DNA from: a virus
Taxonomy: Duplodnaviria > Caudoviricetes
Strand: one strand, 5' to 3'
IMG/VR virus record: IMGVR_UViG_3300020394_000115
Span: 1 to 52,758 of that record
DNA length: 52,758 bases
This document shows positions 14,745 through 45,205 of the stretch, one piece after another. Position 1 is the stretch's first letter. Every line of letters begins with the position of its first letter. The translations under genes were made by a program, and so were the position numbers. The notes beneath the pieces were generated by a model. That model was not told where the DNA came from. It saw only the letters and a list, made by a program, of their open reading frames with translations, and searched no databases.

Positions 14745-15138
14745 AGATTTACCTGTTGATAAAGAACATTTAGATACAGAAAGTTTACGTAATCAAGACT
14801 TATATGCAAAGTATCTAGATTACAAAACTAACTTTGAATTTTTACTAGCAAAGGCAAAGGGCGAATATACAAAGTTATATCGAGACAAGTGGGAATACTA
14901 TGGTGGCAAGTCAGATGCTAAAATTTATGCTTCCAAACCATTTGACTTAAAAGTTTTAAAGAGTGATTTAAACATTTATATTGAATCAGACCAAGAGATT
15001 ATAGACGCAAAGAATAAAATAGTATATCTAGAAACAACAGTAAAATTTTTAGAGGGCGTTCAAAAGTCGATTCAATCTAGAGGGTGGGATATTAAAAATG
15101 CGATTGAATGGCGAAAATTCGAAGCTGGAATGGTTTAA
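14710..15138 (+). CDS. uvsY: Recombination mediator UvsY
   Basis: KWEYYGGK, YIESD, RGWDIKNAIEWRKFEAG. Confidence 0.93.
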   Translation: MTLDDLKKETYKDLPVDKEHLDTESLRNQDLYAKYLDYKTNFEFLLAKAKGEYTKLYRDKWEYYGGKSDAKIYASKPFDLKVLKSDLNIYIESDQEIIDAKNKIVYLETTVKFLEGVQKSIQSRGWDIKNAIEWRKFEAGMV

Positions 15139-15622
15139 ACCAATTCAACAAATGCGAGACGAGGAATATTCATTCCTTGATAATTTCATAAGAACAAGAA
15201 CCTATGGCAATATCTTAGAGATAGGTCAAGGTGGTTCTACTGTTATATTATTAGACGCTACAAAAGATACTGACAGAATGGTATACTCTATTGATATGAA
15301 ATTTAAATTAAAAGATGTCATGAAATATCTACCTAATGATTATATTGAAAGATTAAAATTTATTCAAGATAACTCGCAAAAAATTCATCTGAAAGAAAAA
15401 TTTGGTACTTTACTCATTGATGCAGACCATACCTTTACTGGTGTTAGAAAAGACACTATGAATTTTTGGGATAATTTAGATGATAATGGTTATGCAATTT
15501 TTCATGATTATGGAAATATGCCAGGGGTAACAGAATTTGTTGATGATTGGATTATGCTTTGGGAAAATGCTAAAACAACAATGGTATATGATAATCTTAT
15601 CGTAGTACAAAAACAATGTTGA
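15098..15622 (+). CDS. Class I SAM-dependent methyltransferase (Methyltransf_24-like)
   Basis: ILEIGQGGST, YSID, LLIDADHT, GYAIFHDY. Confidence 0.8.
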   Translation: MRLNGENSKLEWFKPIQQMRDEEYSFLDNFIRTRTYGNILEIGQGGSTVILLDATKDTDRMVYSIDMKFKLKDVMKYLPNDYIERLKFIQDNSQKIHLKEKFGTLLIDADHTFTGVRKDTMNFWDNLDDNGYAIFHDYGNMPGVTEFVDDWIMLWENAKTTMVYDNLIVVQKQC

Positions 15623-18696: not shown

Positions 18697-19757
18697 TGAA
18701 AGTAGCAATCATAACAGATACGCACTTTGGTGCTAGAAACGATAGTGACTTTTTTAATAATTACTTTTATGAATTTTATGAAGGCATATTTTTTCCATAT
18801 CTAGAACAGCATAATATAAAAACAGTTTTTCATCTAGGTGATATGATGGATAGACGTAAGTATGTCTCATATAAAACAGCAAAAGAATTTAGAGAAAGAT
18901 TTGTATTTCCTTTAAAACATTTAAAAGTTGACTTTCATTGTTTAGTAGGTAATCATGATATCTATTATAAAAATACAAATGATATAAACTCACTAAAAGA
19001 ATTAATTGGAAATAAAAGCGATAAGTTTCATTTATATGAGGATGCAACAGAGGTTAATGTTGGTGGATTAGATATACTGTTTATGCCATGGATTAATCCA
19101 CAAAATTATATTTACTCTATGGGTATGATTGATGAAACAAAAGCAGGTATATGTATGGGGCATTTAGAGATTAAAGGATTTCAAATGCACAAAGGACAAT
19201 TTAGTGAAACTGGTTATGACAAAGATACATTTAAAAAATTTCATACAGTATTCTCTGGCCACTTTCATCATAAATCAGATGATGGTCAAATATATTATCT
19301 AGGAACACCATACGAGATATATTGGAACGATCACAATGACCCAAAAGGTTTTCATATCTTTGACACAGAAACTTTAGAGTTAGAAAGAATTGTAAATCCT
19401 ATAAGGATGTTTGAAAAAATTTATTATGATGATACAGATAAAGATTATGCAAATGAGGATGTATCAAAGTATGAAAAGAAGTTTGTTAAATTAATTGTAG
19501 TTAATAAAAAAGATTTATATCAATATGATAGATTTGTTGATAGGTTAATGAAAGCAAACGCATACGAAGTTAAGATAGTAGAAGATTTTTCTGATATGCA
19601 AGCAGATAGTGTATCAGATGATATAGTGAAATATGCTGAAGATACCAATACTTTACTAAACAAATACATAGATGAATTAGAAATTGATTTAGATAAGGAT
19701 AGATTAAAAGGTATGATGCGAGGATTATATAATGAAGCTCAAGACTTGGAACTCTAA
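18696..19757 (+). CDS. gp47: Recombination endonuclease subunit gp47 (SbcD/Mre11-like)
   Basis: DTHFG, LGD, GNHD, GHFH metallophosphoesterase motifs. Confidence 0.95.
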   Translation: MKVAIITDTHFGARNDSDFFNNYFYEFYEGIFFPYLEQHNIKTVFHLGDMMDRRKYVSYKTAKEFRERFVFPLKHLKVDFHCLVGNHDIYYKNTNDINSLKELIGNKSDKFHLYEDATEVNVGGLDILFMPWINPQNYIYSMGMIDETKAGICMGHLEIKGFQMHKGQFSETGYDKDTFKKFHTVFSGHFHHKSDDGQIYYLGTPYEIYWNDHNDPKGFHIFDTETLELERIVNPIRMFEKIYYDDTDKDYANEDVSKYEKKFVKLIVVNKKDLYQYDRFVDRLMKANAYEVKIVEDFSDMQADSVSDDIVKYAEDTNTLLNKYIDELEIDLDKDRLKGMMRGLYNEAQDLEL

Positions 19758-20271
19758 ATACAAGGTAATTTATGCAGACCCACCTTGGCACTTTAAATCA
19801 TACAGTTCAAAAGGTGATGGACGTAACGCTACACAGCATTATGATTGCATGTCTATTTCTGATATTTCTAATTTACGTGTTTCTGATTTGGCTTCAGATG
19901 ATTGTGTATTGCTCATGTGGGTGGTTGACCCAATGTTACCAGAAGCTTTGGAAGTTATTAAAGCGTGGGGTTTCAAATATAAAACAGTAGGTTTCACTTG
20001 GGCGAAACAAAATAAAAATGATTTAGGTATGTTTACAGGTTTAGGTTATTGGACTAGAGCAAACCCAGAGATGTGTTTACTTGCAACAAAAGGTAAACCA
20101 AAAAGAATATCAAAGTCAGTAAGACAACTAATCATAAGTCAACGACAAGAACATAGTAGAAAACCAGATGAGATATATGAAAGAATTGAACAATTATTAG
20201 ATGGTCCTTATGTAGAACTTTTTGCTCGTAGAGAAAGAAAAGGTTGGGATAGTTGGGGTAATGAATTGTGA
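19732..20271 (+). CDS. MT-A70-family amino (N6-adenine) methyltransferase
   Basis: IYADPPW, GYWTRANPE, HSRKPDE, ELFAR, WGNE. Confidence 0.9.
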   Translation: MKLKTWNSKYKVIYADPPWHFKSYSSKGDGRNATQHYDCMSISDISNLRVSDLASDDCVLLMWVVDPMLPEALEVIKAWGFKYKTVGFTWAKQNKNDLGMFTGLGYWTRANPEMCLLATKGKPKRISKSVRQLIISQRQEHSRKPDEIYERIEQLLDGPYVELFARRERKGWDSWGNEL

Positions 20272-22923: not shown

Positions 22924-23093
22924 CACTATACAAATTAAAACTTTATATAAAATTATACTGGTCAACATTTTTATCTTACTTTAAAAAGAAACCAAAAGAT
23001 AATGATGTTTACATTTACGAAAATGATATTGAAGAAGATGAATATCATCGTAAGTTAAGAGAAAACAAAATAGACATAAGTAAAGATGAATAA
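22920..23093 (+). CDS. Unlisted 57-aa hypothetical protein
   Basis: ATGA overlap with the gp46 stop and TAATG overlap with the next gene; MTLYKLKLYIKLYWSTFLSYFKKKPKDNDVYIYENDIEEDEY... Confidence 0.65.
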   Translation: MTLYKLKLYIKLYWSTFLSYFKKKPKDNDVYIYENDIEEDEYHRKLRENKIDISKDE

Positions 23094-24424
23094 TGATACA
23101 CGTAGGAATATCTGAAGGTTTTCATGATGCAGCTATAACTGTACTACATGGACAAGAAATAATATCAGCTAGACATAGTGAGAGATATACTAAAATTAAG
23201 AATGACCCAATTCTTGATTTAAATTTAATACCTGTTAAATATGACACATTAAATTTTTATGAAAAACCTTTCTTAAAAAATACTAGAAGATTATTTGCTG
23301 GTCAAAAATGGCAAAACCCTAGAAGAAAATATGACAATTATTTTGGTCATCATGAAACACATGCAGCTGCAGGTTATTACACTTCACCATTTAATGAATG
23401 TAACGTATTGGTTATAGATGCTATTGGTGAATGGAATACTGTATCCATATGGGAATGTAAAGATAATGAAATGAAAAAAATTAAGTCATGGAATTATCCT
23501 TATTCACTTGGTCTATTATATTCAGCAATCACTAAAAGATTAGGACTAAAACCAAATGAAGATGAATATATTACAATGGGTATGGCTGCGTTTGGAGAAC
23601 CTAGATATGATTTAGAATATTTACTAGAGGAAAACAATCACAAAGGTGTTGGTAGGATATTTCCACATGCACACCCACATGACTTAGCAGCTAGTGTACA
23701 AAATTTATATGAGACTAAGTTTTTGCAATTACTAAAATATTGTGAATATAGTAATCTAGTATTAGCTGGTGGTTGTGCTTTAAATTGTGTTGCTAACAGT
23801 AAGATACCAGACAGATTTAATGTTTGGATTTTACCAGCGCCAGGAGATGCAGGTTCATCTTTGGGTGCAGCTGCATTAGTTGAAAAGAAAAAATTAAAAT
23901 GGAAACATCCTTATCTTGGCTTAGCTGCAGGGCATGGTCAAAGTCATGTAAAGGAGATTGTAGATCATTTACTTAAACATGGAGTATGTGGAATAGTAAA
24001 TGGTAAAGAAGAGTTTGGGCCAAGAGCATTAGGAAATAGAAGTTTACTTGCAGACCCTAGATTAAATATTAAAGATACAGTAAATGAAATAAAACAAAGA
24101 CAAAAATTTAGACCGTTTGCACCAGCAATACTAGAAGAATATTTTGATAAGTATTTTGATGGTCGTAAAAATAGATATATGCAATTTGTATCTAAAGCAA
24201 AACATGATTTAAAATCAGTTACACATGTTGATGGTACTGCTAGAGTTCAATGTGTAGAGGAAGATAATATCAGTATATTAAGACCAATACTAGAAGAGTT
24301 TTATGATAGAACAGGTTGTCCTATGTTACTAAATACAAGTTTGAATATAAAAGGAAGACCTATGTGTAGCACTTGGGCAGATGCCCAAAGATTTGAGAAA
24401 AAATATAATGTCAAAGTATTCTAA
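23093..24424 (+). CDS. O-carbamoyltransferase (NodU/CmcH/TobZ family)
   Basis: GFHDAA, HHETHAA, LAGGCALNC, GDAG, EFGPRALGNRSLLADPR, FRPFAP, HVDGTAR, LLNTSLN. Confidence 0.93.
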   Translation: MIHVGISEGFHDAAITVLHGQEIISARHSERYTKIKNDPILDLNLIPVKYDTLNFYEKPFLKNTRRLFAGQKWQNPRRKYDNYFGHHETHAAAGYYTSPFNECNVLVIDAIGEWNTVSIWECKDNEMKKIKSWNYPYSLGLLYSAITKRLGLKPNEDEYITMGMAAFGEPRYDLEYLLEENNHKGVGRIFPHAHPHDLAASVQNLYETKFLQLLKYCEYSNLVLAGGCALNCVANSKIPDRFNVWILPAPGDAGSSLGAAALVEKKKLKWKHPYLGLAAGHGQSHVKEIVDHLLKHGVCGIVNGKEEFGPRALGNRSLLADPRLNIKDTVNEIKQRQKFRPFAPAILEEYFDKYFDGRKNRYMQFVSKAKHDLKSVTHVDGTARVQCVEEDNISILRPILEEFYDRTGCPMLLNTSLNIKGRPMCSTWADAQRFEKKYNVKVF

Positions 24425-32819: not shown

Positions 32820-33527
32820 ATGTATGAGAATAAAGTCGACTCCGACACAAGCGAATTCTTACAGACAGGTCTAGGAATGAAAAACGAATGGCATGTTGTA
32901 ACAGAATTTGAAAACAAGATAGCAGAATTCTTTGGTGCTCCATATGCGGTCGCCACAGATTGTTGTACAAATGCCCTTGAACTTAGCATAAGATTAGAAA
33001 AAATGAAAAAAGGTAGAGAGGTTAGACCAATAACTGTACCTTTCCACACTTATGTTTCAGTACCAAACATGTTAATTAAAAATAATTGGACATTCAATTG
33101 GGGTGATGTTCGTTGGCATGGATATCATTATTTAACAAAAGAAACAATTGATGCAGCTGTATATTGGAAAAGAAATGGTTATGAACCAGGTACAAAAATG
33201 TGTTTAAGTTTTTTTTATAGAAAACATTTAAGTACAGATAGAGGTGGAATGATACTTCTAGATAATAAAGAAGATGCTGATTTATTAAGGATAATGTGTT
33301 ATGATGGTAGGCAAAGATCAAACGTGCCATGGAATAAACAATACATAGATTTATTTGGTTATCATTATTATATGACACCACATAAAGCAAAAATAGGATT
33401 AAAAAATTTTGAAAAGGTGAAAGACAAAAAGCCAATAAGAAAAGATTGGGATTGGTACCCAGACATTCATAATTGGCCTGTCTATAAAAAATTTGGTGAT
33501 GAAACATTTAGTATTAGTACAAAGTAA
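32820..33527 (+). CDS. Short DegT/DnrJ/EryC1/StrS-family PLP enzyme (DesI-like)
   Basis: EFE...AVATDCCTNALEL, IDAA, CLSFFYRKHL..RGGMIL (PLP Lys), GYHYYMTP; shorter than typical family members. Confidence 0.8.
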   Translation: MYENKVDSDTSEFLQTGLGMKNEWHVVTEFENKIAEFFGAPYAVATDCCTNALELSIRLEKMKKGREVRPITVPFHTYVSVPNMLIKNNWTFNWGDVRWHGYHYLTKETIDAAVYWKRNGYEPGTKMCLSFFYRKHLSTDRGGMILLDNKEDADLLRIMCYDGRQRSNVPWNKQYIDLFGYHYYMTPHKAKIGLKNFEKVKDKKPIRKDWDWYPDIHNWPVYKKFGDETFSISTK

Positions 33528-34593
33528 TCAAGGCGTAGGTCACGCAAATAGAGCAAAGGCTTTAGGTGAGTATCTAACAACCAGACTTATTATAACTAGA
33601 CCTTTTACAGGTAAATCAACCGATACTGAATTTTTTGGACACGATAAAGTCTATAACGATTTATATCAAGATTATAGAGAGTATGACCCAGATGTAATTA
33701 TTACAGAGGGATATCCTTTTGGTCGATATGGTTGGGACCCATTTTGGGCTGAACAATGGGGTCATAAATGGGAACATGGTGGCGTTTTAGATATATTAGA
33801 ACATGCAAAAGAAAATAAGAAAAAAATTTATTCATTAGATAGAGATATACCTTGGATTCAACCAAAGGAAATGTATTTCTATATTGATAGATTAAATGAA
33901 TATTATGATGGTGTGTTTTTTGCTGGCGACTATAATTTTTTAGACGCAACTGAGCAACTATATGAAACCCCCATGATAGATTGTGAAGTTTATAATACTG
34001 GTTATATTACATATCCTTATACCAAACCAAGTGTTGATAAAAGAGATGGTATATTAGTATCTGGTGGTGATTGGTATAAACTAACTCATAAGTATCAAAG
34101 ATTATTTCTTGAAGTAAAAGAAGCAATTCCTAGTTTAAAAATATCTTTTATTATTGGTGATAAAACACCAAAAGATATTTTAAAAATGGCAGAGAATAGA
34201 GATATTAATTTAATTAAAAGACCAAGTGTAAATGAATTTAGAGATTATTTGTCTGTACATAAAATGGCATTTACATCTTTAGGTTATATGACTTTTACTG
34301 ATTTAAATATTACAAAAACACCAGCGTTAGTTGTTCCAAATGAATATTCATCATCTGAATTATATGATGTAAATAATAATGTTATAGGAAACGAAGAAAC
34401 TTATAGAACATCTAGATATTCAGACGAAGGTGGTTGCCATTGGATACCACAAAAAGATTTAGATATAGATTTAATATTAGGAGGTATTGAAGAGACAATG
34501 AAAATTAAACAAGAGGATATACCAGATATCGATTTAGATGGTGGAGAATATATTAAACAATGTTTGATAGAGAAGAAAATAAAATATATTTAA
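33499..34593 (+). CDS. GT-B glycosyltransferase (GT28/COG4671-like)
   Basis: QGVGHANR, PDVIITEGYPFGR, ILVSGG, GYMT...PALVVP. Confidence 0.72.
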   Translation: MKHLVLVQSNQGVGHANRAKALGEYLTTRLIITRPFTGKSTDTEFFGHDKVYNDLYQDYREYDPDVIITEGYPFGRYGWDPFWAEQWGHKWEHGGVLDILEHAKENKKKIYSLDRDIPWIQPKEMYFYIDRLNEYYDGVFFAGDYNFLDATEQLYETPMIDCEVYNTGYITYPYTKPSVDKRDGILVSGGDWYKLTHKYQRLFLEVKEAIPSLKISFIIGDKTPKDILKMAENRDINLIKRPSVNEFRDYLSVHKMAFTSLGYMTFTDLNITKTPALVVPNEYSSSELYDVNNNVIGNEETYRTSRYSDEGGCHWIPQKDLDIDLILGGIEETMKIKQEDIPDIDLDGGEYIKQCLIEKKIKYI

Positions 34594-35627
34594 AAAGTAT
34601 TCAAGGTGCGATAGATGGTGGACATATGCAAGCCTCGATAGATAACAAGTACATGTACCCTTGGCGTATAAACATATTTCCTGGTACGAGTTGTATGTTT
34701 TTTTGTTCTTTCTGTGGTAGAAATCATGGTTCTGTTGTTGATGATGCATATGAATCATATCTTTACTTTAAACAAGTAATAGAACAAGATAGTGGTAAAG
34801 ACCCTAAAGTTTTTGGTATAGGTGGTGGACTAGAACCACTGACAACACCTTACATAGGTGAAATATTTAAAAACTTACATGATGGTGGGTATAAATGTAG
34901 AATGTTAACAAATGCTTTTTTACTTAATAACAAGTATATTAAAAAACATGAATATATTAATTCGTTAGATCATATTAGAGTATCTTTGTATGGTATAGAT
35001 GAAGAAGAATATAAAAGTACAACAAAACATAATAAGGGTTGGCATGTTGTAAAAGAAAATTTAAAAAATTATAACAAGATTGAAAATAGAACTAAGTTAT
35101 ATTTAAATTATATACTATTACCAAGTAACTATAAAAACATATTAAAAGTAATTGATTATATTGATTACATAGGTGGATGTGATAATTTATCTTTACGTGA
35201 AGACTTTGCTTTTCATTATGAGATTGAAGAGAGAAAAACTTTGGCAGAGTATCTTTTAAAATTTGATACTGAAATAAAAAAGAGAGGTATAAGAGTTGAC
35301 TATGGTTATTCTTTATCTCAATTACTAAAAGGTTTGGAAACAAAACTATTAAGAGTAACTTCGGTAGATCAATTAACCAGAAGACAATCGCCACAAGTAA
35401 AGATTGCCCTTGACCCGAGAGGCGATATATATTATTATCAAGAAGCAGGTTTCATAGATAGACCTGGTTCAGATAGACATATTTTGGGTAATATAAAAAA
35501 TTCTTCTATTGAAGAAGAGCTAAAAAAAGAAGTTGAAATAGAACCTGATATAAATGATGTAAAATATATGGACGCATTTAATCAGACTGTTGAATTATAT
35601 AAATGGAGTAAGCGATGTATGAATTAA
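34560..35627 (+). CDS. Radical SAM enzyme, DesII-like
   Basis: FPGTSCMFFCSFCGR (CxxxCxxC, recalls DesII YPGPTCMFRCHFC), GGGLEPLT, IRVSLYG, LREDF, DYGY. Confidence 0.8.
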   Translation: MFDREENKIYLKSIQGAIDGGHMQASIDNKYMYPWRINIFPGTSCMFFCSFCGRNHGSVVDDAYESYLYFKQVIEQDSGKDPKVFGIGGGLEPLTTPYIGEIFKNLHDGGYKCRMLTNAFLLNNKYIKKHEYINSLDHIRVSLYGIDEEEYKSTTKHNKGWHVVKENLKNYNKIENRTKLYLNYILLPSNYKNILKVIDYIDYIGGCDNLSLREDFAFHYEIEERKTLAEYLLKFDTEIKKRGIRVDYGYSLSQLLKGLETKLLRVTSVDQLTRRQSPQVKIALDPRGDIYYYQEAGFIDRPGSDRHILGNIKNSSIEEELKKEVEIEPDINDVKYMDAFNQTVELYKWSKRCMN

Positions 35628-37155: not shown

Positions 37156-37184
37156 TTGACAATAAGATACTAATAATATATTAT
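37156..37184 (+). promoter_or_regulatory. Sigma70-type promoter (gp43)
   Basis: TTGACA-17 nt-TATTAT, 8 nt before the ATG. Confidence 0.75.
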
Positions 37185-37192
37185 GGTAAACG

Positions 37193-39670
37193 ATGAGTAA
37201 GTTTTACACAAATGTTATACAATGGGGAAACAATCTTTTACTAAGAGAGATTGTCAATGGTGAACGTATTAATCGTAGGATTAAATATTCGCCTACTATG
37301 TTTTGCCCTGTCATGAGAGAAACAAAATACAAAACTCTTCAAGGCAAATATGTGATGCCTGTTAAACATGAGACTATCAAAGAAGCCAAGAATTGGATTC
37401 AACAATACGAAGATCAGCCTCACTTGGTATATGGTAATACCAACTTTCAATTTAATTATCTGTATGAACAATATCCTAACCTTGAGTGGAATATGGATGA
37501 AGTATTAATTATTACAATTGATATTGAGGTTGCTTGTGAGAATGGTTTTCCAAATGTAAAAGATGCAGCTGAGGAAATGTTATCTATCACAATTAAGAAC
37601 CAGCAGAATAAACAAATATTTGTTTGGGGTGTAGGTAAGTATCAAACAAGTAGAAAAGATGTTGTGTATATTGAATGTGATAATGAATATGAATTACTTA
37701 CAGAGTTTCTAAAGTTTTGGAAAGTAAATCAACCAGATGTTATTACTGGTTGGAATACAGAATTTTTTGATATACCTTATTTGTGTAATCGTATTAAAAG
37801 AATAATGGGTGAGGATACTTTAAAAGATTTATCACCATGGAGATCAGTATTATCTAAAACAATATATCAAATGGGAAGACAACATCAAATATACGAAATA
37901 CAAGGTGTTGCAGCTCTTGACTACTATGATCTATATAGAAAATTTACATACACCAATCAAGAGAGTTACAAACTAGATCATATTGCTAGTGTAGAACTTG
38001 GTATTAAGAAAGATGAAAATCCACATGATACGTTTAGAGATTGGTATACAAATGACTTTCAATCTTTTATAGATTACAATATCAAAGACGTTGAGATAGT
38101 TGACCAACTAGAAGACAAGATGAAACTAATTGAACTATGTTTAACAATGGCATATGAGGCAAAAGTAAATTATGTTGATGTTCTCGGTACAGTTCGTTAT
38201 TGGGATATGTTAATACACAACTACTTAATGGATAAAAAAATTGTTATACCACAAAAAACTGATAAAGAAAAATCTGACAAGTATGAAGGTGCATATGTTA
38301 AAGACCCACAGGTTGGCGAACACAAATGGGTTGTGTCTTTTGACTTGAATAGTTTGTATCCACATCTAATTATGCAATATAATATTTCACCAGAAACATT
38401 GAAGAGTGAAAGAACTGTACCTAATATGAATGTGGATAAGATGTTAAGTAAATCAGTTGATACATCTATATTAGAAAATACTACCATGACACCAAATGGT
38501 GCTTTGTTTAGAACTGATAAAAAAGGTTTTTTACCTGAGATGATGCAAACAATGTATGATGATAGAGTTAAGTATAAACGAGCAATGTTAGATGCTAAAC
38601 AAGAATATGAAAAAACTAAAAATGCAAAATTATTAAAAATGATATCTAAGTTCGATAATATTCAAATGGCAAGAAAGATTTCACTTAACTCAGCTTATGG
38701 TGCGATTGGTAACAAATGGTTTAGATATTACAATTTACCTATGGCAGAAGCAATAACCACTTCTGGTCAACTATCTATTCGTTGGATTGAACATAAGATA
38801 AATGAATACATGAATAATATAAATCAAACAAAAGATGTTGATTATGTTATTGCGTCTGATACAGACTCAGTTTATATTCGATTTGATGAACTAATAGAAA
38901 AATTTAATCCAAAAAACCCAGTTGACTTTCTTGATAAAATAGCTAAAGATAAAGTAGAACCATTTATTAATCAAGCGTATCAAGAACTTGCTGATTACAC
39001 ACACGCATACGATCAGAAAATGCAAATGAAACGTGAAGTGATTGCAGACAAAGGTATATGGACAGCAAAGAAAAGATATATTTTAAATGCACATGACGTT
39101 GAAGGTGTTCGTTATCAAGAACCTAAATTAAAAATTATGGGAATAGAAGCAGTTAAGTCTTCAACACCAGCACCTTGTCGTGAAAAAATTAAACAAGCAT
39201 TACGTATTATTATGGATGGTAACGAAAAAGAATTAAATATATTTATTCAAAATTTTAGAACTGAGTTTCTAACATTACCACCAGAGGATGTGGCATATCC
39301 TAGAAGTGTGAATGGTCTAGATAAGTGGACTGAATCACACAATCTATTTAAAAAGGGAGCACCAATACATGTCAAAGGTGCTATATTATATAATTATCTA
39401 GTTAAGAAAAATAAACTATCTCACAAATACCCATTTATACAAGAGGGTGATAAGATTAAATTTTTACATATGCAATTACCAAACATATATCAATCTTCTA
39501 GTATTTCATTTATTACTTCATTACCAAAAGAAATAAAGTTTGCTGTTGATTATGAAACACAATTTGAAAAGTCTTTTATTGAACCTCTACATTATATTAC
39601 TGAAAAAATTAAATGGAATGTAGATAGAACTTATGGTACTCAAGGTACTCTAGATGAATTTTTTGTATGA
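37193..39670 (+). CDS. gp43: Family B DNA polymerase gp43
   Basis: DIE exonuclease motif, SFDLNSLYPH, KISLNSAYG, SDTDS, KKRY. Confidence 0.98.
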   Translation: MSKFYTNVIQWGNNLLLREIVNGERINRRIKYSPTMFCPVMRETKYKTLQGKYVMPVKHETIKEAKNWIQQYEDQPHLVYGNTNFQFNYLYEQYPNLEWNMDEVLIITIDIEVACENGFPNVKDAAEEMLSITIKNQQNKQIFVWGVGKYQTSRKDVVYIECDNEYELLTEFLKFWKVNQPDVITGWNTEFFDIPYLCNRIKRIMGEDTLKDLSPWRSVLSKTIYQMGRQHQIYEIQGVAALDYYDLYRKFTYTNQESYKLDHIASVELGIKKDENPHDTFRDWYTNDFQSFIDYNIKDVEIVDQLEDKMKLIELCLTMAYEAKVNYVDVLGTVRYWDMLIHNYLMDKKIVIPQKTDKEKSDKYEGAYVKDPQVGEHKWVVSFDLNSLYPHLIMQYNISPETLKSERTVPNMNVDKMLSKSVDTSILENTTMTPNGALFRTDKKGFLPEMMQTMYDDRVKYKRAMLDAKQEYEKTKNAKLLKMISKFDNIQMARKISLNSAYGAIGNKWFRYYNLPMAEAITTSGQLSIRWIEHKINEYMNNINQTKDVDYVIASDTDSVYIRFDELIEKFNPKNPVDFLDKIAKDKVEPFINQAYQELADYTHAYDQKMQMKREVIADKGIWTAKKRYILNAHDVEGVRYQEPKLKIMGIEAVKSSTPAPCREKIKQALRIIMDGNEKELNIFIQNFRTEFLTLPPEDVAYPRSVNGLDKWTESHNLFKKGAPIHVKGAILYNYLVKKNKLSHKYPFIQEGDKIKFLHMQLPNIYQSSSISFITSLPKEIKFAVDYETQFEKSFIEPLHYITEKIKWNVDRTYGTQGTLDEFFV

Positions 39671-40473
39671 TAGATAAACTATTAGTTGAAAATATAGAAC
39701 AAACAACACCAGATCAAAACGTGGCAGTATTATTGTCTGGTGGGGTTGATAGTATATCAGTTGCATTGGCAGCTCATAGACTAGGAAAAACTATAACAGC
39801 ATATTCTTTTTGCCTTGACAACGAGCCCTCTTATGATTATAATAAGGCTAAAGAGATTGCAAAGAATCACAATTGGGCATTTGTAGGAACTGTAATAGAC
39901 ACTACAAAACTTGAACAAGACTTTTACAAGTTGGTAAGTTTAGGATGCAAAAAGAAAACTCATTATGAATGTGTGTATCCTTTTTTACATGTGTACCCAA
40001 AGATTGCAGAGACTTATGTACTCTCTGGTTGGGCAGCAGATGGTTATTATGGAGTAAGTAAAAAAGCAAACATCCATTATAAACATACTAAAGAAAAGTT
40101 TGATGAGTTTAGAGATCAATACTTTTTACCAGAAAATGCAGCTGGATATAAAATGCATAAAAAAGTTTCGGATATGTATAATAAAAAATTTATTACACCA
40201 TATCTAAGAATGAATGTGAAAGATTATTTTTATAGTATGGATTGGTATCAATTAAATCAACCTTATCAAAAACATCACGTAAGAACTGCTTTTAATCTTG
40301 ACAAAGACGTTAAGAAACATTTAAACTTACAATTAGATTCAAAAATAAATGTATTGTTTGAAAGACTGCTAAATAATAAAAAGATAAACTATAAAGGAAG
40401 ATCAAGAGTGATGGACATGGTTAGAGATTGGCCTAAACCTGAAGGTGCAACACTAAATCAATTTATGATATGA
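39667..40473 (+). CDS. Asparagine-synthetase-like ATP-dependent amide ligase without a glutaminase domain
   Basis: PP-loop LLSGGVDS, VLSGWAADGYYG, ITPYL, KHHVRTAF; only 268 aa. Confidence 0.78.
   Translation: MIDKLLVENIEQTTPDQNVAVLLSGGVDSISVALAAHRLGKTITAYSFCLDNEPSYDYNKAKEIAKNHNWAFVGTVIDTTKLEQDFYKLVSLGCKKKTHYECVYPFLHVYPKIAETYVLSGWAADGYYGVSKKANIHYKHTKEKFDEFRDQYFLPENAAGYKMHKKVSDMYNKKFITPYLRMNVKDYFYSMDWYQLNQPYQKHHVRTAFNLDKDVKKHLNLQLDSKINVLFERLLNNKKINYKGRSRVMDMVRDWPKPEGATLNQFMI
39815..39843 (+). promoter_or_regulatory. Intragenic sigma70 promoter upstream of the C5-MTase and CmoA genes
   Basis: TTGACA(39815-20)-17 nt-TATAAT(39838-43), exact consensus. Confidence 0.6.
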
Positions 40474-41609
40474 AATACAAACCTTATTTAATGAAAGATG
40501 TACATGCTGGAGAAGCTCTGAATAAGTTTAGAGTTATATCTACTTTCGCTGGTGGTGGAGGTTCATCTACAGGTTACAGACTTGCTGGTGGTAAGATACT
40601 TGCAATTAATGAGTTTGTTGAAGAGGCAAGAAATACTTACAGAGACAATTATCCTAACACACCAATTCTTGATGGTGATATAAAAGAACTTACAGGTAAA
40701 GAATTTTTAGAAGTAACAAAATTAAAAGAAGGTGAACTAGAATTATTAGATGGCAGTCCACCTTGTTCAGCATTTAGTATGTGTGGTACTCTTGCAAGAG
40801 AGGGAACTGTACATAGTGATGGGTTTGGTAAAACTAAATCTTATTCAGATGGTAAGATAGTTACAAACATCGAAGACTTATTTTTTGAGTTTCTAAGAGT
40901 TGCTGAAGTTATTAGACCAAAAACTATTATTGCAGAAAATGTTGAGGGTCTAACAGTTGGAGAAGCAAAACAATATTTTAATAAAATTCAAAATACATTT
41001 GAAGACATTGGATATCAAGTAGTTGCAAAAGTACACGATTGTTCTCAGTTTGGTGTTCCACAAAGAAGACGAAGAGTTTTCTTCATGGCAGTACGTGATG
41101 ATATCATGGATGAAGTTGGTTTAAACTTTATGACATTATCATCTTTATTTCCTGAGCCAAATAAAACAATTACTACTTTACAAGGTGCCTTTGATGGTTT
41201 AGAGTATGATAAAGATGAAGTTGATATGTTAACTACAAAATGGAAAGAGACAGCATACTATAAACAAACATGTGTTTTGATGCCAAGAAACCCAGATAAA
41301 GTTATTACTGGTACAGACTATCATCCTAAAGGATGGCACTTTAATTTAAAGATTGCTTCAGAGTTTCACCCTAGTCCTACTATTACAGCGATGGGTGCAA
41401 CAGAAAAAACTGCTGGAGTTTGTCATTGGAATGATGATAGAAAATTTACACTTGGCGAATTAAAAAGAGTTACTTCATTACCAGATGATTTTGTACTTAC
41501 AGGTAAGTGGGCACAAAAAAGTGAAAGATGTGGTCGTATGGTACCTAGTCTTATGATGAAAGCTCTTGCTGAATCAATGTATAACAAGGTGATAAAAAAT
41601 GCCAGATAA
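40470..41609 (+). CDS. C5-cytosine DNA methyltransferase homologue, probable carboxymethyltransferase
   Basis: FAGGGG (I), GSPPC (IV), ENV (VI), QRRRRVF (VIII); motif X reads GRMVP instead of GNAV/GNSV. Confidence 0.85.
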   Translation: MKYKPYLMKDVHAGEALNKFRVISTFAGGGGSSTGYRLAGGKILAINEFVEEARNTYRDNYPNTPILDGDIKELTGKEFLEVTKLKEGELELLDGSPPCSAFSMCGTLAREGTVHSDGFGKTKSYSDGKIVTNIEDLFFEFLRVAEVIRPKTIIAENVEGLTVGEAKQYFNKIQNTFEDIGYQVVAKVHDCSQFGVPQRRRRVFFMAVRDDIMDEVGLNFMTLSSLFPEPNKTITTLQGAFDGLEYDKDEVDMLTTKWKETAYYKQTCVLMPRNPDKVITGTDYHPKGWHFNLKIASEFHPSPTITAMGATEKTAGVCHWNDDRKFTLGELKRVTSLPDDFVLTGKWAQKSERCGRMVPSLMMKALAESMYNKVIKNAR

Positions 41610-42306
41610 TGATTTTACTTTCGCACATAGAGACGAAGGTTTTGATAATCATATAGATAAATCTATTCGTGGTTATCAAGATATGTTAAAAGATGTAGTA
41701 TCTTTTTCTAGATACTTTATAGAAGACGGAACATATGTATTAGATATAGGATGTTCTACAGGTAAACTTACTGAAAGAATAATAAAAGCAAATAAAGATA
41801 TAGCACCATCTGCTCATTATGTTGGTGTTGAATATGCAAAAGGTTTTCAGAAAGACTTAAAAGAAAGAACTAAAACAATTAAAAATAATCATGATATTGA
41901 ACCAAAGTTTTTACATGCAGATATTAGATATCATGATTTTGATTATAGACATAAATTATCATTAGCAACTTCTATCTTTACTTTACAGTTTATGCCAAAG
42001 AGAGATAGAGAGGATGTAATTAAAAAAGTGTACAATCAACTACAACCTGGTGGAGCTTTAGTGTTTGCAGAAAAAGTTTATTGTGAAAATCCACAAATAC
42101 AAGACATGATGACTTTTATGTATTACGACCATAAGAAAGAAAGCTTTAGTTGTGATGATATAATGACAAAAGAAAAAACATTAAGACATATGTTAAAACC
42201 TAATACTTACGATGAATTAAAACAGTTTATGTACAATGCTGGATTTAAAGATGTGCAAGTGTTCTGGCGAAACTTTATGTTCATAGGAGCGATAGCAATA
42301 AAATGA
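41599..42306 (+). CDS. cmoA: CmoA-like carboxy-SAM synthase
   Basis: FTF...FDNHIDKSIRGY, DIGCSTG, FTLQF, GGALVFAEK, AGF...FWRNFMF match the CmoA layout. Confidence 0.8.
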   Translation: MPDNDFTFAHRDEGFDNHIDKSIRGYQDMLKDVVSFSRYFIEDGTYVLDIGCSTGKLTERIIKANKDIAPSAHYVGVEYAKGFQKDLKERTKTIKNNHDIEPKFLHADIRYHDFDYRHKLSLATSIFTLQFMPKRDREDVIKKVYNQLQPGGALVFAEKVYCENPQIQDMMTFMYYDHKKESFSCDDIMTKEKTLRHMLKPNTYDELKQFMYNAGFKDVQVFWRNFMFIGAIAIK

Positions 42307-42530
42307 GTAAGGCAAGTGAAGAGAAAAGAATGTATGAAAGTCTAAAGGCTCATGCTGAAGACATGTCATACGAAAATGAAGGTAGTACTGTTACTATCCC
42401 ATTAAAAGAATATGATAAATTAAAACAACAACAATCTTATATTACAGATAAAAGTTTAATTGCTGTGATAGATAAGATAGAAGAATTGGTTAGAGCATTA
42501 AGAAAACATATTGTTCGAACTGATATATAA
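42303..42530 (+). CDS. Hypothetical protein
   Basis: AGGAG RBS, ATGA overlap, 75 aa. Confidence 0.6.
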   Translation: MSKASEEKRMYESLKAHAEDMSYENEGSTVTIPLKEYDKLKQQQSYITDKSLIAVIDKIEELVRALRKHIVRTDI

Positions 42531-42542
42531 TAGGAGTAAATT

Positions 42543-43589
42543 ATGGCTGGAACTGATTTTCTAAAAGAAATAATTAAAACAACTGGTAATGAATATGCAT
42601 CATTGGCTAACGATGGTATCGAAAGTGGTGATGTATCAGACTTCATTGATACAGGTTCATATATTTTTAATGCTCTTCTATCTGGTTCACTATATGGTGG
42701 ACTTCCACAAAATAAAATTACAGCACTAGCAGGTGAGTCTGCAACTGGTAAGACTTTCTTTCTTATGGGGATGGTTAAACATTTCTTAGATGCAAACCCA
42801 GATGGTGGTGTTGTTTACTTTGAGTCAGAATCAGCAATTACTAAAAAGATGGTTGTTGATAGAGGTATCGATGCAGAAAGAATGGTTATTGTACCTGTAA
42901 CAACTGTACAAGAATTTAGAACACAAGCAATATCAGTATTAGATAGATACATGCAACAAGATGTAGATATAAGAAGACCATTGTTTATATGTTTAGACTC
43001 TTTAGGAATGTTATCAACTACAAAAGAAGTAGAGGATACTAAAGAAGGTAAAGAGACTAGAGACATGACAAGAGCTCAAGTATTAAAAGCTGCATTTAGA
43101 GTATTAACATTGAAACTTGGTAAAGCAAAAGTACCAATGGTTGTAACTAATCATACTTATGATGTTGTTGGTTCATATGTACCTATGAAAGAAATGGGTG
43201 GTGGAAGTGGATTAAAATATGCAGCTTCTTCTATCATATATCTTTCAAAGAAGAAAGATAAAGTAGGCACAGAGGTCGTTGGTAATATTATTCATTGTAA
43301 AAACCAAAAGTCAAGATTAACAAAAGAAAATTCTATTGTGGATGTTAAACTTACATATACTAAAGGACTTGATAAGTATTATGGTTTACTACCACTTGCT
43401 GAAAAGTATGACATATTTAAAAAAGTATCTACTAAGTACGAACTACCAGATGGTAAAAAAGTATTTGGTAAATCAATAAATGATGACCCTCAAACTTATT
43501 TTACTGAGGAAGTAATGAGTAAGTTAGAGGATGCAGCTAAAAAGGAATTTTCTTATGGTGGAAACGAAGAAACCAAAGAAGAGATATAG
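42543..43589 (+). CDS. uvsX: RecA-like recombinase UvsX
   Basis: [32 protein letters not shown]. Confidence 0.96.
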
Positions 43590-43875
43590 TTATATCGAAT
43601 CACCTAATCATCCTAAACAAACTTGTATAGGTATAAACGAAGGTAAGTGGCAAGGTGTTATATACAAATATGGTAAAGTTACACCAATTGAAAAAGATGG
43701 TACGGCAACTTTACAGTTTGAGTTTGATATACTAGAAAACAACGGACTACCAAGAGATGTATTTGACAAAGAGTTTTTTACATACATTGGTGATATATTA
43801 GTGGAAATAATTGATGAACAAAACAATCGAGAAGACAACTCTATCGCATCTAATTTGGAACGAGGATTACTCTAG
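43555..43875 (+). CDS. Hypothetical protein at the gp40 position
   Basis: Between uvsX and gp41 as in T4 uvsX-40-41; AAGGA RBS before ATG 43555. Confidence 0.55.
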
Positions 43876-45205
43876 AAAAGTAATTCCGTTTATCAAAGAA
43901 GATTATTTTACAGATAAGAATGATAAAGTAATCTTTCAAGAGATAGTAAAGTTTATAGAGAAATATAATAAGACACCTACGATAACATCTATACAAATTG
44001 AAATAGATAATCGTAAAGACTTATCTGAGTCTCAGTTCAAAGAAATTAAAGAGACAATATCTACATTTGAAAAAGAAGATGTTGATATCGATTGGTTATG
44101 TGATACAACTGAAAACTGGTGTAAAGAAAAAGCAATATACAATGCAATCGTTGACGGAATATCTATCATCGAAGGCAGAGATAAGAATCGTAAACCAGAT
44201 GCTTTACCTACTTTACTTACAGATGCACTAGCAGTTTCATTTGATAATAGAGTTGGTCATGATTACTTACAAGATTCTACTGAGAGATTTGACTACTACC
44301 ATAAAGTAGAAGAAAGAATACCTTTTGATTTAGATTTCTTTAATAAGATTACAAAAGGTGGATTACCTCAAAAGACATTGAACGTTGCACTTGCTGGCAC
44401 AGGTGTAGGTAAATCTTTGTTCATGTGTCATATGGCTTCTAACTGTCTATCTCAAGGTAAAAATGTTTTATACATTACCTTAGAGATGGCAGAGGAGCGT
44501 ATTGCTGAAAGAATAGATGCAAACTTAATGAATCTTAGCATTGATGATTTACATGACTTACCTAAAACAATGTATCAAGATAAGATTGAAAAAGTTAAAA
44601 AGAAAGCATCAGGTAATCTTATTATTAAAGAATATCCTACAGCATCAGCACATACTAATCACTTTAGACAGTTAATACAAGAACTAGCAATTAAGAAATC
44701 ATTTAAACCAGATATTATATTTGTGGATTATTTAAATATATGTGCTTCATCTAGATTTAGAGGTGGAAGTAATATTAATTCATATACAATAATAAAAGCA
44801 ATAGCAGAGGAACTAAGAGGACTAGCAGTAGAGAATAATCTACCAATAGTCACAGCAACACAGACAACAAGAAGTGGATTTGTTTCAACTGATATCGGAC
44901 TTGAAGATACATCCGAATCATTTGGACTACCAGCAACAGCAGACTTTATGTTTGCGCTTATCTCAACAGATGAGTTAGAGGAATTAAATCAGATGGCTGT
45001 CAAACAGCTTAAAAATAGATACAATGACCCTACGGTTAATAAAAGATTTGTGCTTGGAGTAGATCGAGCAAAAATGAAACTATACGATGTAGAAGTAAAA
45101 GCTCAAGATGATATCGTTGACAAGAATCAAGAAGACGATACACCATTATTTGATAAATCAACAATAGGGTCTAGATATGAAAAGTTCCAAAAACTCAAGG
45201 TTTAA
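43814..45205 (+). CDS. gp41: Replicative helicase gp41
   Basis: AGTGVGKS, LEMAE, FVDYL, TATQT, SESFGLPATAD, QLKNRY. Confidence 0.96.
   Translation: MNKTIEKTTLSHLIWNEDYSRKVIPFIKEDYFTDKNDKVIFQEIVKFIEKYNKTPTITSIQIEIDNRKDLSESQFKEIKETISTFEKEDVDIDWLCDTTENWCKEKAIYNAIVDGISIIEGRDKNRKPDALPTLLTDALAVSFDNRVGHDYLQDSTERFDYYHKVEERIPFDLDFFNKITKGGLPQKTLNVALAGTGVGKSLFMCHMASNCLSQGKNVLYITLEMAEERIAERIDANLMNLSIDDLHDLPKTMYQDKIEKVKKKASGNLIIKEYPTASAHTNHFRQLIQELAIKKSFKPDIIFVDYLNICASSRFRGGSNINSYTIIKAIAEELRGLAVENNLPIVTATQTTRSGFVSTDIGLEDTSESFGLPATADFMFALISTDELEELNQMAVKQLKNRYNDPTVNKRFVLGVDRAKMKLYDVEVKAQDDIVDKNQEDDTPLFDKSTIGSRYEKFQKLKV

Follow-up and report, generated by a model that had tools for sequence, protein, structure and literature searches.

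A predicted CmoY-CmoX-CmoA cytosine hypermodification cassette with exchanged ligase alleles in an uncultured marine T4-like phage

Carboxymethylation of cytosine in DNA, followed by conversion of the new carboxyl group to an amide, was described in December 2025 for Synechococcus phage S-B43, where the CmoA/CmoX/CmoY pathway has been proven (Yang et al., Nat Commun 2025, PMC12783734). SpCmoA makes carboxy-S-adenosylmethionine (Cx-SAM) from S-adenosylmethionine (SAM) and prephenate with a kcat of 2.33 per s, ten-fold faster than the CmoA of E. coli. SpCmoX, a homologue of the cytosine C5-methyltransferases (C5-MTases), produces 5-carboxymethylcytosine (5cxmC) at GpC, the wild-type enzyme accepting Cx-SAM only and not SAM; in its 1.9 A structure (PDB 8YF3), Arg350 occupies the place of M.HhaI Asn304 and contacts the carboxymethyl group. 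SpCmoY is an asparagine-synthetase homologue that ligates glycine in an ATP-dependent reaction to give 5-glycylcarboxymethylcytosine (5gcxmC), and in the DNA of S-B43 the glycine amide is present but free 5cxmC is not. Here, we describe three genes, named cmoY, cmoX and cmoA after these enzymes, in the IMG/VR virus record IMGVR_UViG_3300020394_000115. The window, meaning the whole 52,758-nucleotide stretch of DNA that was analysed, is that complete, linear record, with a CheckV completeness of about 29%.

The authors of the S-B43 study also surveyed IMG/VR v4, UniProtKB and MGnify, taking as the mark of a CmoX protein an SPPC motif plus an Arg in motif X where canonical C5-MTases have Asn, and reported 5,615 candidates, whose contigs also encode 4,257 CmoA proteins and 2,251 ligases (PMC12783734). 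Several clusters of ligases with distinct active-site residues and unidentified amines were distinguished, a ParB-domain partner was reported as frequent, and a glutamine-type class of ligase was not obtained in soluble form. The system is, in other words, already published and surveyed in the source database, and the window is a new example of it that adds no new principle. A search of the available literature from 2025 onward found no second paper on a natural CmoX, CmoY, 5cxmC or 5gcxmC system. A preliminary description of the window, made from the DNA letters alone, had pointed to a CmoX/CmoA/CmoY report in a Synechococcus phage, and the S-B43 paper is that report.

Three other systems share single steps with this pathway. 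The first is M.MpeI N374K, an engineered C5-MTase in which an Asn-to-Lys change in motif X allows Cx-SAM to be accepted and 5cxmC to be made; the parallel, also drawn in the preliminary description, appears in the Discussion of PMC12783734. M.MpeI is a bacterial CpG enzyme with an engineered Lys, whereas the window CmoX is natural, uses Arg, and belongs to a phage family with a GpC-targeting member; M.MpeI (PDB 4DKJ) matches the window protein weakly (E 7e-7). The second is the CmoA/CmoB route of E. coli to 5-oxyacetyluridine at tRNA position 34 (cmo5U34), in which the CmoA step, from SAM and prephenate to Cx-SAM, is homologous. There, the acceptor enzyme is CmoB and the substrate is 5-hydroxyuridine (ho5U) in tRNA, whereas in the window the acceptor enzyme is a homologue of DNA C5-MTases and the substrate would be C5 of cytosine in DNA. 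The third is the family of asparagine synthetase B (AsnB) and the beta-lactam and carbapenam synthetases, with which CmoY shares its fold, an SGGxDS PP-loop and, presumably, acyl-adenylate chemistry. CmoY differs in its short length, in the lack of an N-terminal glutaminase and in a hydrophobic residue (Trp) at the position of AsnB Glu348, and its carboxyl substrate, by analogy with the S-B43 enzyme, would be a modified base in duplex DNA.

In the window, the three genes follow the DNA polymerase gene gp43 directly and on the same strand, in the order cmoY-cmoX-cmoA, and encode proteins of 268, 379 and 235 amino acids (Table 1). All junctions overlap: the sequence ATGA is shared between gp43 and cmoY, between cmoY and cmoX (4 nucleotides), and between cmoA and a following 75-codon open reading frame (ORF), orf75, and 11 nucleotides are common to cmoX and cmoA. 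The coordinates are exactly those of the preliminary description, in which the three genes had also been noted to overlap. The three genes very probably constitute a DNA hypermodification cassette orthologous to the S-B43 enzymes, in the minimal form Y-X-A with no further genes in it. This assignment is carried by orthology, by conserved catalytic and cofactor-binding residues and by gene linkage; the chemistry, the amine and the target are read across by homology from S-B43.

Table 1. Features of the cassette and of other genes in the window, with the basis for each assignment
Feature	Position	Strand	Basis or remark
cmoY, predicted ATP-dependent PP-loop amide ligase	39667..40473	+	PF00733 E 1.8e-12, residues 3-162; PP-loop SGGVDS at residues 24-29
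cmoX, predicted DNA cytosine C5-carboxymethyltransferase (C5-MTase fold using Cx-SAM)	40470..41609	+	PF00145 E 1.3e-49, full length
Catalytic Cys99 codon, SPPC motif (= Sp Cys98)	40764..40766	+	Coordinate computed from ORF start
Arg356 codon in ERCGRMVP, motif X (= Sp Arg350)	41535..41537	+	Alignments to SpCmoX and 8YF3
cmoA, predicted carboxy-SAM synthase (SAM + prephenate to Cx-SAM)	41599..42306	+	TIGR00740; SpCmoA homology; phrog_4752 E 1.5e-62
gp43, family-B DNA polymerase, 825 aa (context)	37193..39670	+	Polymerase comparison; stop overlaps cmoY start (ATGA)
orf75, 75-aa ORF	42303..42530	+	Between cmoA and uvsX; no Pfam or PHROG match
uvsX, recombinase (context)	42543..43589	+	phrog_97 E 4.9e-90, synteny; downstream border of variable slot
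gp41-type helicase	43811-45205		Downstream of uvsX
MT-A70 family protein	19732-20271		PF05063 E 1.1e-30; phrog_359 'DNA methyltransferase' E 4.6e-87; between SbcD-like and SbcC-like genes
Methyltransf_24 protein	15098-15622		E 3.5e-14; adjoins uvsY

CmoX is 59% identical to SpCmoX over its full length (E 5e-163). The best solved structure for it is that of SpCmoX itself, 8YF3 (E 1.2e-141), followed at a distance by M.HaeIII (E 1.8e-16). Its C5-MTase motifs are intact, with FAGGGG at residue 26, SPPC at 96, ENV at 156, QRRRR at 198 and GRMVP at 355, the last forming part of the ERCGRMVP motif X to which the preliminary description had drawn attention and in which the Arg codon is confirmed. In addition, the residues of 8YF3 that contact the adenine and ribose of Cx-SAM (Sp F25, E47, F48 and D69) correspond to F26, E48, F49 and D70 of the window protein. 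These four residues, together with Sp S95, P96, P97, C98 and R350, are identical in the window and in 72 of 72 aligned CmoX proteins, namely those of the window, of the phages S-B43 and S-CRM01, and of 69 related loci with an uncut ORF.

For the remaining two proteins, full-length relationships to the S-B43 enzymes can likewise be identified. CmoA is 54% identical to SpCmoA (E 3e-90), matches positions 14-239 of the 239 in TIGR00740 (E 4.2e-33), and is matched over its full length by the E. coli CmoA structures 4IWN and 4GEK (E about 1e-20), which bears out the CmoA layout proposed for this gene in the preliminary description. CmoY is 46% identical to SpCmoY (E 8e-88). Its AlphaFold2 model has a mean predicted local distance difference test score (pLDDT) of 88.8, and the top Foldseek matches of that model are beta-lactam synthetase, carbapenam synthetase and asparagine synthetase, with query-normalised TM-scores (TMq) of 0.65-0.74. 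A Pfam search of the protein gave no glutaminase (GATase) match and the synthetase domain alone, in agreement with the preliminary description. The Lys and Arg residues that are invariant across CmoY clades and SpCmoY (K97, R149 and K202) are all kept in the window.

By homology to the S-B43 enzymes, a pathway can be proposed in which CmoA would carboxylate SAM with prephenate to give Cx-SAM. CmoX would then flip the target cytosine out of the helix, Cys99 would attack C6, and the carboxymethyl group would move from Cx-SAM to C5 with Arg356 gripping the carboxylate of the cofactor, leaving 5cxmC in the phage DNA. CmoY would use ATP to adenylate the carboxyl group of 5cxmC and couple an amine to it, forming an amide, and the modified phage DNA would resist host restriction. 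By analogy with SpCmoY, the amine is probably an alpha-amino acid; glycine, which would yield 5gcxmC, is the best single guess at about an even chance, and an amine other than glycine is a more tentative proposition. The sequence of steps from Cx-SAM through 5cxmC to an amide is that of the preliminary description, and orthology to S-B43 now lends it support.

Several observations weigh against such a direct transfer of function from S-B43. For CmoY, identity to SpCmoY is just 46%, and the window protein lies in a separate, well-supported clade. In a profile alignment, its Trp122 stands opposite Glu348 of E. coli AsnB, where SpCmoY has Ile; we take Glu348 to be a residue with a catalytic role at the acyl-adenylate/ammonia site. 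For CmoX, the target recognition domain (TRD, residues 210-322) shares 45% identity with that of SpCmoX and is lengthened by a 6-residue insert right behind SPTITAMG, so that GpC specificity is not assured. For CmoA, the scores are below the equivalog cut-offs of both TIGR00740 (115 versus 193.3 bits) and NF011995 (76.9 versus 285), and HMMER aligns the Arg within QKRSML of the E. coli protein with Glu192 of the window protein.

The last of these points had been raised as a caveat in the preliminary description, and it is eased by the proven SpCmoA, which has the same local pattern K-E-K-x-L-R, reading KEKELRDML where the window reads KEKTLRHML (from residue 191). Residues K191, E192, L195 and R196 and the segment K200-P-N-T are invariant in 69 phage CmoA proteins (41 distinct), and the invariant Arg196 is found four residues beyond Glu192. 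The phage CmoA clade, the active SpCmoA included, appears to diverge from the bacterial equivalog. As for the role of Arg199 in E. coli CmoA, no paper naming the residue was found among those open to search, and the passages seen of a review (PMC10491745) are silent on it.

GpC, by analogy with SpCmoX, is the default expectation for the target of the window CmoX, though not an assured one. The window contains 1,360 GpC sites, which hold 15.9% of its cytosines. Across the whole window, the ratio of observed to expected dinucleotides is 0.54 for CpG, which is depleted, 1.01 for GpC, 1.01 for GG and 0.96 for CC; the GpC value is uninformative on the CmoX target.

Linkage of the genes was assessed in 76 related IMG/VR loci, chosen by similarity to the window CmoX, with gene content determined by local tblastn. 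Of the 63 loci that extend 1 kb or more past cmoX, 62 have a cmoA gene downstream. The preliminary description had proposed to check this co-occurrence of the Arg variant with cmoA and had named its absence as a ground for refutation, so that on this point the proposal is not refuted. The exception is L066 (L066:2867-3994), which has no cmoA downstream and no cmoY or gp43 match in the 2.9 kb upstream; here, cmoA may be elsewhere in the genome, or Cx-SAM may be supplied by the host. Of the 63 loci that extend 1 kb or more ahead of cmoX, 46 have a short cmoY directly upstream of it.

These patterns bear on a reading in which the cassette is no cassette at all: cmoX would encode an ordinary 5-methylcytosine (5mC) MTase, CmoA would act on host tRNA (cmo5U), and the ligase would be an unrelated asparagine-synthetase-like metabolic gene, brought together by coincidence. 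Phages often encode C5-MTases and class-I methyltransferases, and the PHROG family of the window CmoA is labelled 'tRNA methyltransferase', both of which are in keeping with this explanation. It has to contend, however, with overlapping genes that are also linked in nearly all (cmoA) or most (short cmoY) of the related loci, with an Arg356 in place of the canonical Asn, as in the wild-type SpCmoX that used Cx-SAM only and not SAM, and with a ligase that has no glutaminase domain. Moreover, no CmoB-family (PF08003) match is present in the window, which represents about 29% of the genome. A coincidental assembly of this kind is extremely unlikely.

The association of the motif-X Arg with CmoA can be followed, in a small sample, beyond the related loci, in MTase homologues of greater distance encoded by five cultured phages (PaBG, TurkishDelight, Erwinia Y3, Mcat8 and Melnitz). 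In PaBG, TurkishDelight and Mcat8, the Arg is accompanied by an adjacent CmoA or CmoA-like gene, that of Mcat8 being a remote one (22% identity, pairwise E 4e-11). In Erwinia phage Y3, whose MTase is of the Arg type, a CmoA gene lies at a distance of about 17 kb. Melnitz, which has Leu at this position, does not appear in the set of 68 phage records that gave a CmoA match at E <= 1e-10. In this small sample, the association goes as the preliminary description and the S-B43 paper predict. As a separate observation, in the 709-residue MTase of Erwinia phage vB_EamM_Y3 (L082:1001-3130), an insert of about 330-360 residues separates SPP from the catalytic Cys; sub-threshold Pfam matches to Intein_splicing (E 2.8e-7) and Hint_2 (E 3.2e-4) make it look like an intein within motif IV.

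In Methylophilales phage Melnitz (L004:4010-8850, MZ577097.1), a different cytosine-modification cassette occupies the same slot, after gp43 and before recA/uvsX. Its MTase belongs to the same subfamily (37.7% identity to the window CmoX) and keeps GSPPC, but has a Leu in motif X (ARIGLMVA). The MTase gene is followed by genes for a Tet/JBP oxygenase (PF12851 E 3.6e-11), a 427-residue protein without a Pfam match, a P-loop kinase-like protein, a 99-residue ORF and MazG. The combination of Leu and a Tet/JBP oxygenase without CmoA points to a predicted route from 5mC to 5-hydroxymethylcytosine (5hmC), not to carboxymethylation.

Compared with S-B43, the window encodes the same three protein families, including the same short glutaminase-free ligase, and both phages are T4-like and marine; there is no difference in the SPPC cysteine, in the residues that contact Cx-SAM or in the key Arg. 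The arrangement of the genes differs. The order is Y-X-A in the window and A-Y-X in S-B43 (L001), while S-CRM01 has A-X only, with no cmoY. The window cassette lies between gp43 and uvsX, whereas that of S-B43 follows a primase-helicase/pyrophosphatase block and that of S-CRM01 is situated between gp62 and regA. The backbone lineage also differs, the window polymerase being nearer to that of Melnitz than to those of cyanophages. Finally, the window CmoY forms part of a separate clade with Trp122 for Ile, and the CmoX TRD shows the divergence and the insert noted above.

The content of the interval between gp43 and cmoX is not constant in the related loci. Among the 17 loci without a short cmoY directly upstream, five (L052, L058, L059, L069 and L076) have in its place a full-length, glutamine-type AsnB-like ligase, a 468-residue protein with GATase and Asn_synthase domains (e.g. 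L069:4590-5996) that belongs to the class not obtained in soluble form in PMC12783734 and is preceded by a conserved protein of 370-381 residues with no significant Pfam match. In other cases, the change is of another kind, as in L062, where a highly divergent 293-residue CmoY-like gene (25% identical) is found, or in L051, L057, L061, L070-L073, L075 and L077, where cmoX comes straight after gp43. Because the upstream and ligase content differs among loci, the gp43-uvsX interval can be described as a variable slot. Further cargo of this slot in other loci includes a radical-SAM/SPASM protein (by Pfam; L020:3010-3813) and unannotated proteins of 330-485 residues between gp43 and cmoY, which have no significant Pfam match, one of them matching ParB_N at an E of 0.0026, below the cut-off. 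Neither relatives of these 330-485-residue proteins nor a ParB-domain partner were found in the window. By eye only, an adenine-MTase-like ORF with a DPPW motif was seen in L021:3968-5190, and an IMPDH/GMP-reductase-like ORF (inosine or guanosine monophosphate enzymes) followed by a MazG-like ORF was seen after cmoA in L057:2793-4263, L062:6146-7622 and L077:8122-9593.

On the other side of the cassette, orf75 was considered as a fourth component and rejected. By tblastn, it follows cmoA in just 5 of the 76 related loci (L005, L006, L007, L009 and L047), and it resembles none of the small ORFs beside the S-B43 or S-CRM01 cassettes and has no match in Pfam or PHROG. It probably lies outside the system.

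The genes of the slot have diverged to very different extents, as is evident from a comparison of the window with eight loci whose gp43 proteins are 74-78% identical to its own (L014, L018, L020, L023, L026, L031, L036 and L044). For gp43, nonsynonymous divergence (dN) is 0.156-0.188 and synonymous divergence (dS) 1.06-1.45; for cmoX, protein identity rises to 91-93% (dN 0.045-0.080, dS 0.50-0.90); for cmoA, it falls to 58-64% (dN 0.265-0.327, dS 1.10-1.47); and for cmoY, it is 45-48% in seven of the eight loci (dN 0.46-0.53, dS 1.16-2.09), dS values above about 1 being near saturation and the contrast in dS, as a consequence, suggestive and not exact. The eighth locus, L036, has a cmoY with 79% identity (dN 0.135, dS 0.80).

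Sliding-window nucleotide identity shifts sharply at the gene borders. For instance, identity to L014 is about 75-80% in gp43, about 60% in cmoY, 87-92% in cmoX and about 64% in cmoA, and identity to L009 is 88-94% over most of gp43, falling to about 77-84% near its 3' end, about 60% in cmoY and 91-95% in cmoX and cmoA. Selecting the loci by CmoX similarity favours high CmoX identity, but does not account for the sharp borders or for the swapping of cmoY described below. As judged by these values, cmoX looks like an island of high identity that has been either recently shared or strongly constrained.

A quick IQ-TREE tree of cmoY was built from all 48 complete ORFs of the related loci plus those of the window, S-B43 and PaBG (51 rows, 31 of them different; ORFs truncated at the end of a locus were dropped). 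It contains well-supported clades in conflict with the gp43 groups. L009, which has the backbone of the window, carries a cmoY that groups with alleles of another backbone (support in the SH-like approximate likelihood ratio test, SH-aLRT, of 98), and, conversely, L036-L039, which have that other type of backbone, carry a cmoY that groups with the allele of the window (SH-aLRT 100). Counting supported branches, the tree forces at least three and at least two label changes for the two backbone groups. The CmoY of S-B43 joins the marine clades at an unresolved base of the tree. On this comparison, cmoY alleles are apparently exchanged as modules at gene boundaries between near-identical phages, and exchange of ligase alleles beside a conserved CmoX points to diversification of the cytosine adduct among closely related marine phages.

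Such exchange is the setting for a variant of the proposed pathway in which everything up to 5cxmC is as in S-B43 and the CmoY clade of the window couples an amine that is not glycine, be it another amino acid, a polyamine or some other small amine, the CmoX motif perhaps not being plain GpC either. The separate clade of the window CmoY is suggestive in this respect, with all marine clades being 42-52% identical to SpCmoY, as are 42 positions at which the window clade is fixed for a residue lacking from the consensus of the five remaining clades and SpCmoY. Position 122, counted among these 42 and opposite AsnB Glu348, holds Trp in the clade of the window and in a second clade, and Val, Leu or Ile elsewhere. 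Swapping of cmoY between near-identical phages with cmoX unchanged would be expected if variation in the adduct were advantageous, and PMC12783734 itself reports ligase clusters with distinct active sites whose amines are unidentified; a motif other than GpC would fit with the diverged TRD and its insert. Against this, an E-value of 8e-88 would put the window CmoY in the SpCmoY cluster at the threshold of 1e-56 used in PMC12783734, the two E-values being only roughly comparable; according to that paper, proteins of this cluster retain the residues that bind the glycine carboxylate. The invariant Lys and Arg residues are common to all CmoY clades. If the exchange of Ile for Trp affects the pocket, it should make it smaller, which favours the smallest amino acid, and allele swapping can be neutral. 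A non-glycine amine in the window phage is less likely than glycine and is held tentatively.

A further explanation concerns the benefit of the cassette and not its chemistry. Here, the main advantage would come from CmoA depleting the host of SAM and disabling SAM-dependent defences, with DNA carboxymethylation being secondary. The authors of the S-B43 study raise SAM depletion as an open question, and the speed of SpCmoA relative to the E. coli enzyme would suit such a role (PMC12783734). However, cmoA is nearly always linked to cmoX (62 of 63 loci). In addition, no gene of the region is better conserved than cmoX, an argument for the tightest constraint being on the DNA step. Depletion of SAM as the principal function is very unlikely, though it is compatible with, and not exclusive of, the assignment of the three genes to a hypermodification cassette.

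With respect to expression, the overlap of coding regions from gp43 onward indicates that the cassette is probably co-expressed with the replication genes. A promoter-like sequence, TTGACA-17-TATTAT, is found ahead of gp43 at 37156-37184, and a perfect sigma-70 consensus, TTGACA-17-TATAAT (12/12), is present on the plus strand inside cmoY at 39815-39843, where chance is a possible explanation. In the region as a whole, promoter-like sites are no more frequent than in shuffled sequences (56 versus 59.2 +/- 7.6), nor are terminator-like sites (2 versus 2.5), and with counts at chance level no operon boundaries were drawn from the scan. Contigs from the RNA library of run X18 match cmoX (40789-40954 and 41096-41371), cmoA (41635-41792 and 41893-42044), uvsX and gp43 with 0-1 differences, and those of run X20 match cmoY, cmoX and cmoA at about 93-98% identity; as carry-over of DNA is possible in assembled contigs, these matches are at most a weak hint of expression and were not used as evidence.

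The carrier of the cassette is an uncultured marine T4-like phage of a non-cyanophage-like lineage. T4-like structural and replication genes are present in the window, and its gp43 is 61.8% identical to the polymerase of Melnitz, the nearest cultured relative, against 53-55% for the polymerases of cyanomyoviruses. Half or more of the words sampled from an 8-kb stretch occur in each of 17 marine metagenome runs; of these runs, 13, from six studies, were not flagged as a possible source. A megablast search of the 2.6-kb cassette region against 50,697 phage records, a set that may lack records of the window's own genome, found no near-identical DNA in cultured phages.

Elsewhere in the window, further methyltransferase genes are present (Table 1), given which the phage may carry adenine methylation as well. 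Three ORFs are inserted at 32820-35627, between the gp44 clamp loader gene and a gp62-like gene. They encode a 235-residue protein with a fragment-like match to DegT/DnrJ aminotransferases (PF01041 E 1.2e-21, partial profile coverage), a 366-residue protein without a family match and a 355-residue radical-SAM protein (PF04055 E 6.2e-11). At 23093-24424, a NodU/CmcH-type carbamoyltransferase (PF16861 E 3.4e-47, PF02543 E 7e-38) is encoded, followed by two ORFs without a family match.

The window illustrates, in a non-cyanophage-like marine T4 lineage, how the ligase can be exchanged while the carboxymethyltransferase is kept. The CmoY alleles predicted to act on the same CmoX product represent a natural panel of variants to be screened for new amide adducts, and the TRD variants of CmoX a panel for new target motifs, both of which are goals named as open in PMC12783734. 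It is conceivable, though doubtful at present, that cmoY is an exchangeable adduct module beside a near-invariant cmoX, with deep alleles about 45% identical to one another, and that the Trp122 clade attaches an amine other than glycine. If so, close phage relatives would carry chemically different cytosine adducts, presenting host restriction with a moving target, and the DNA of the window phage would contain a new base.

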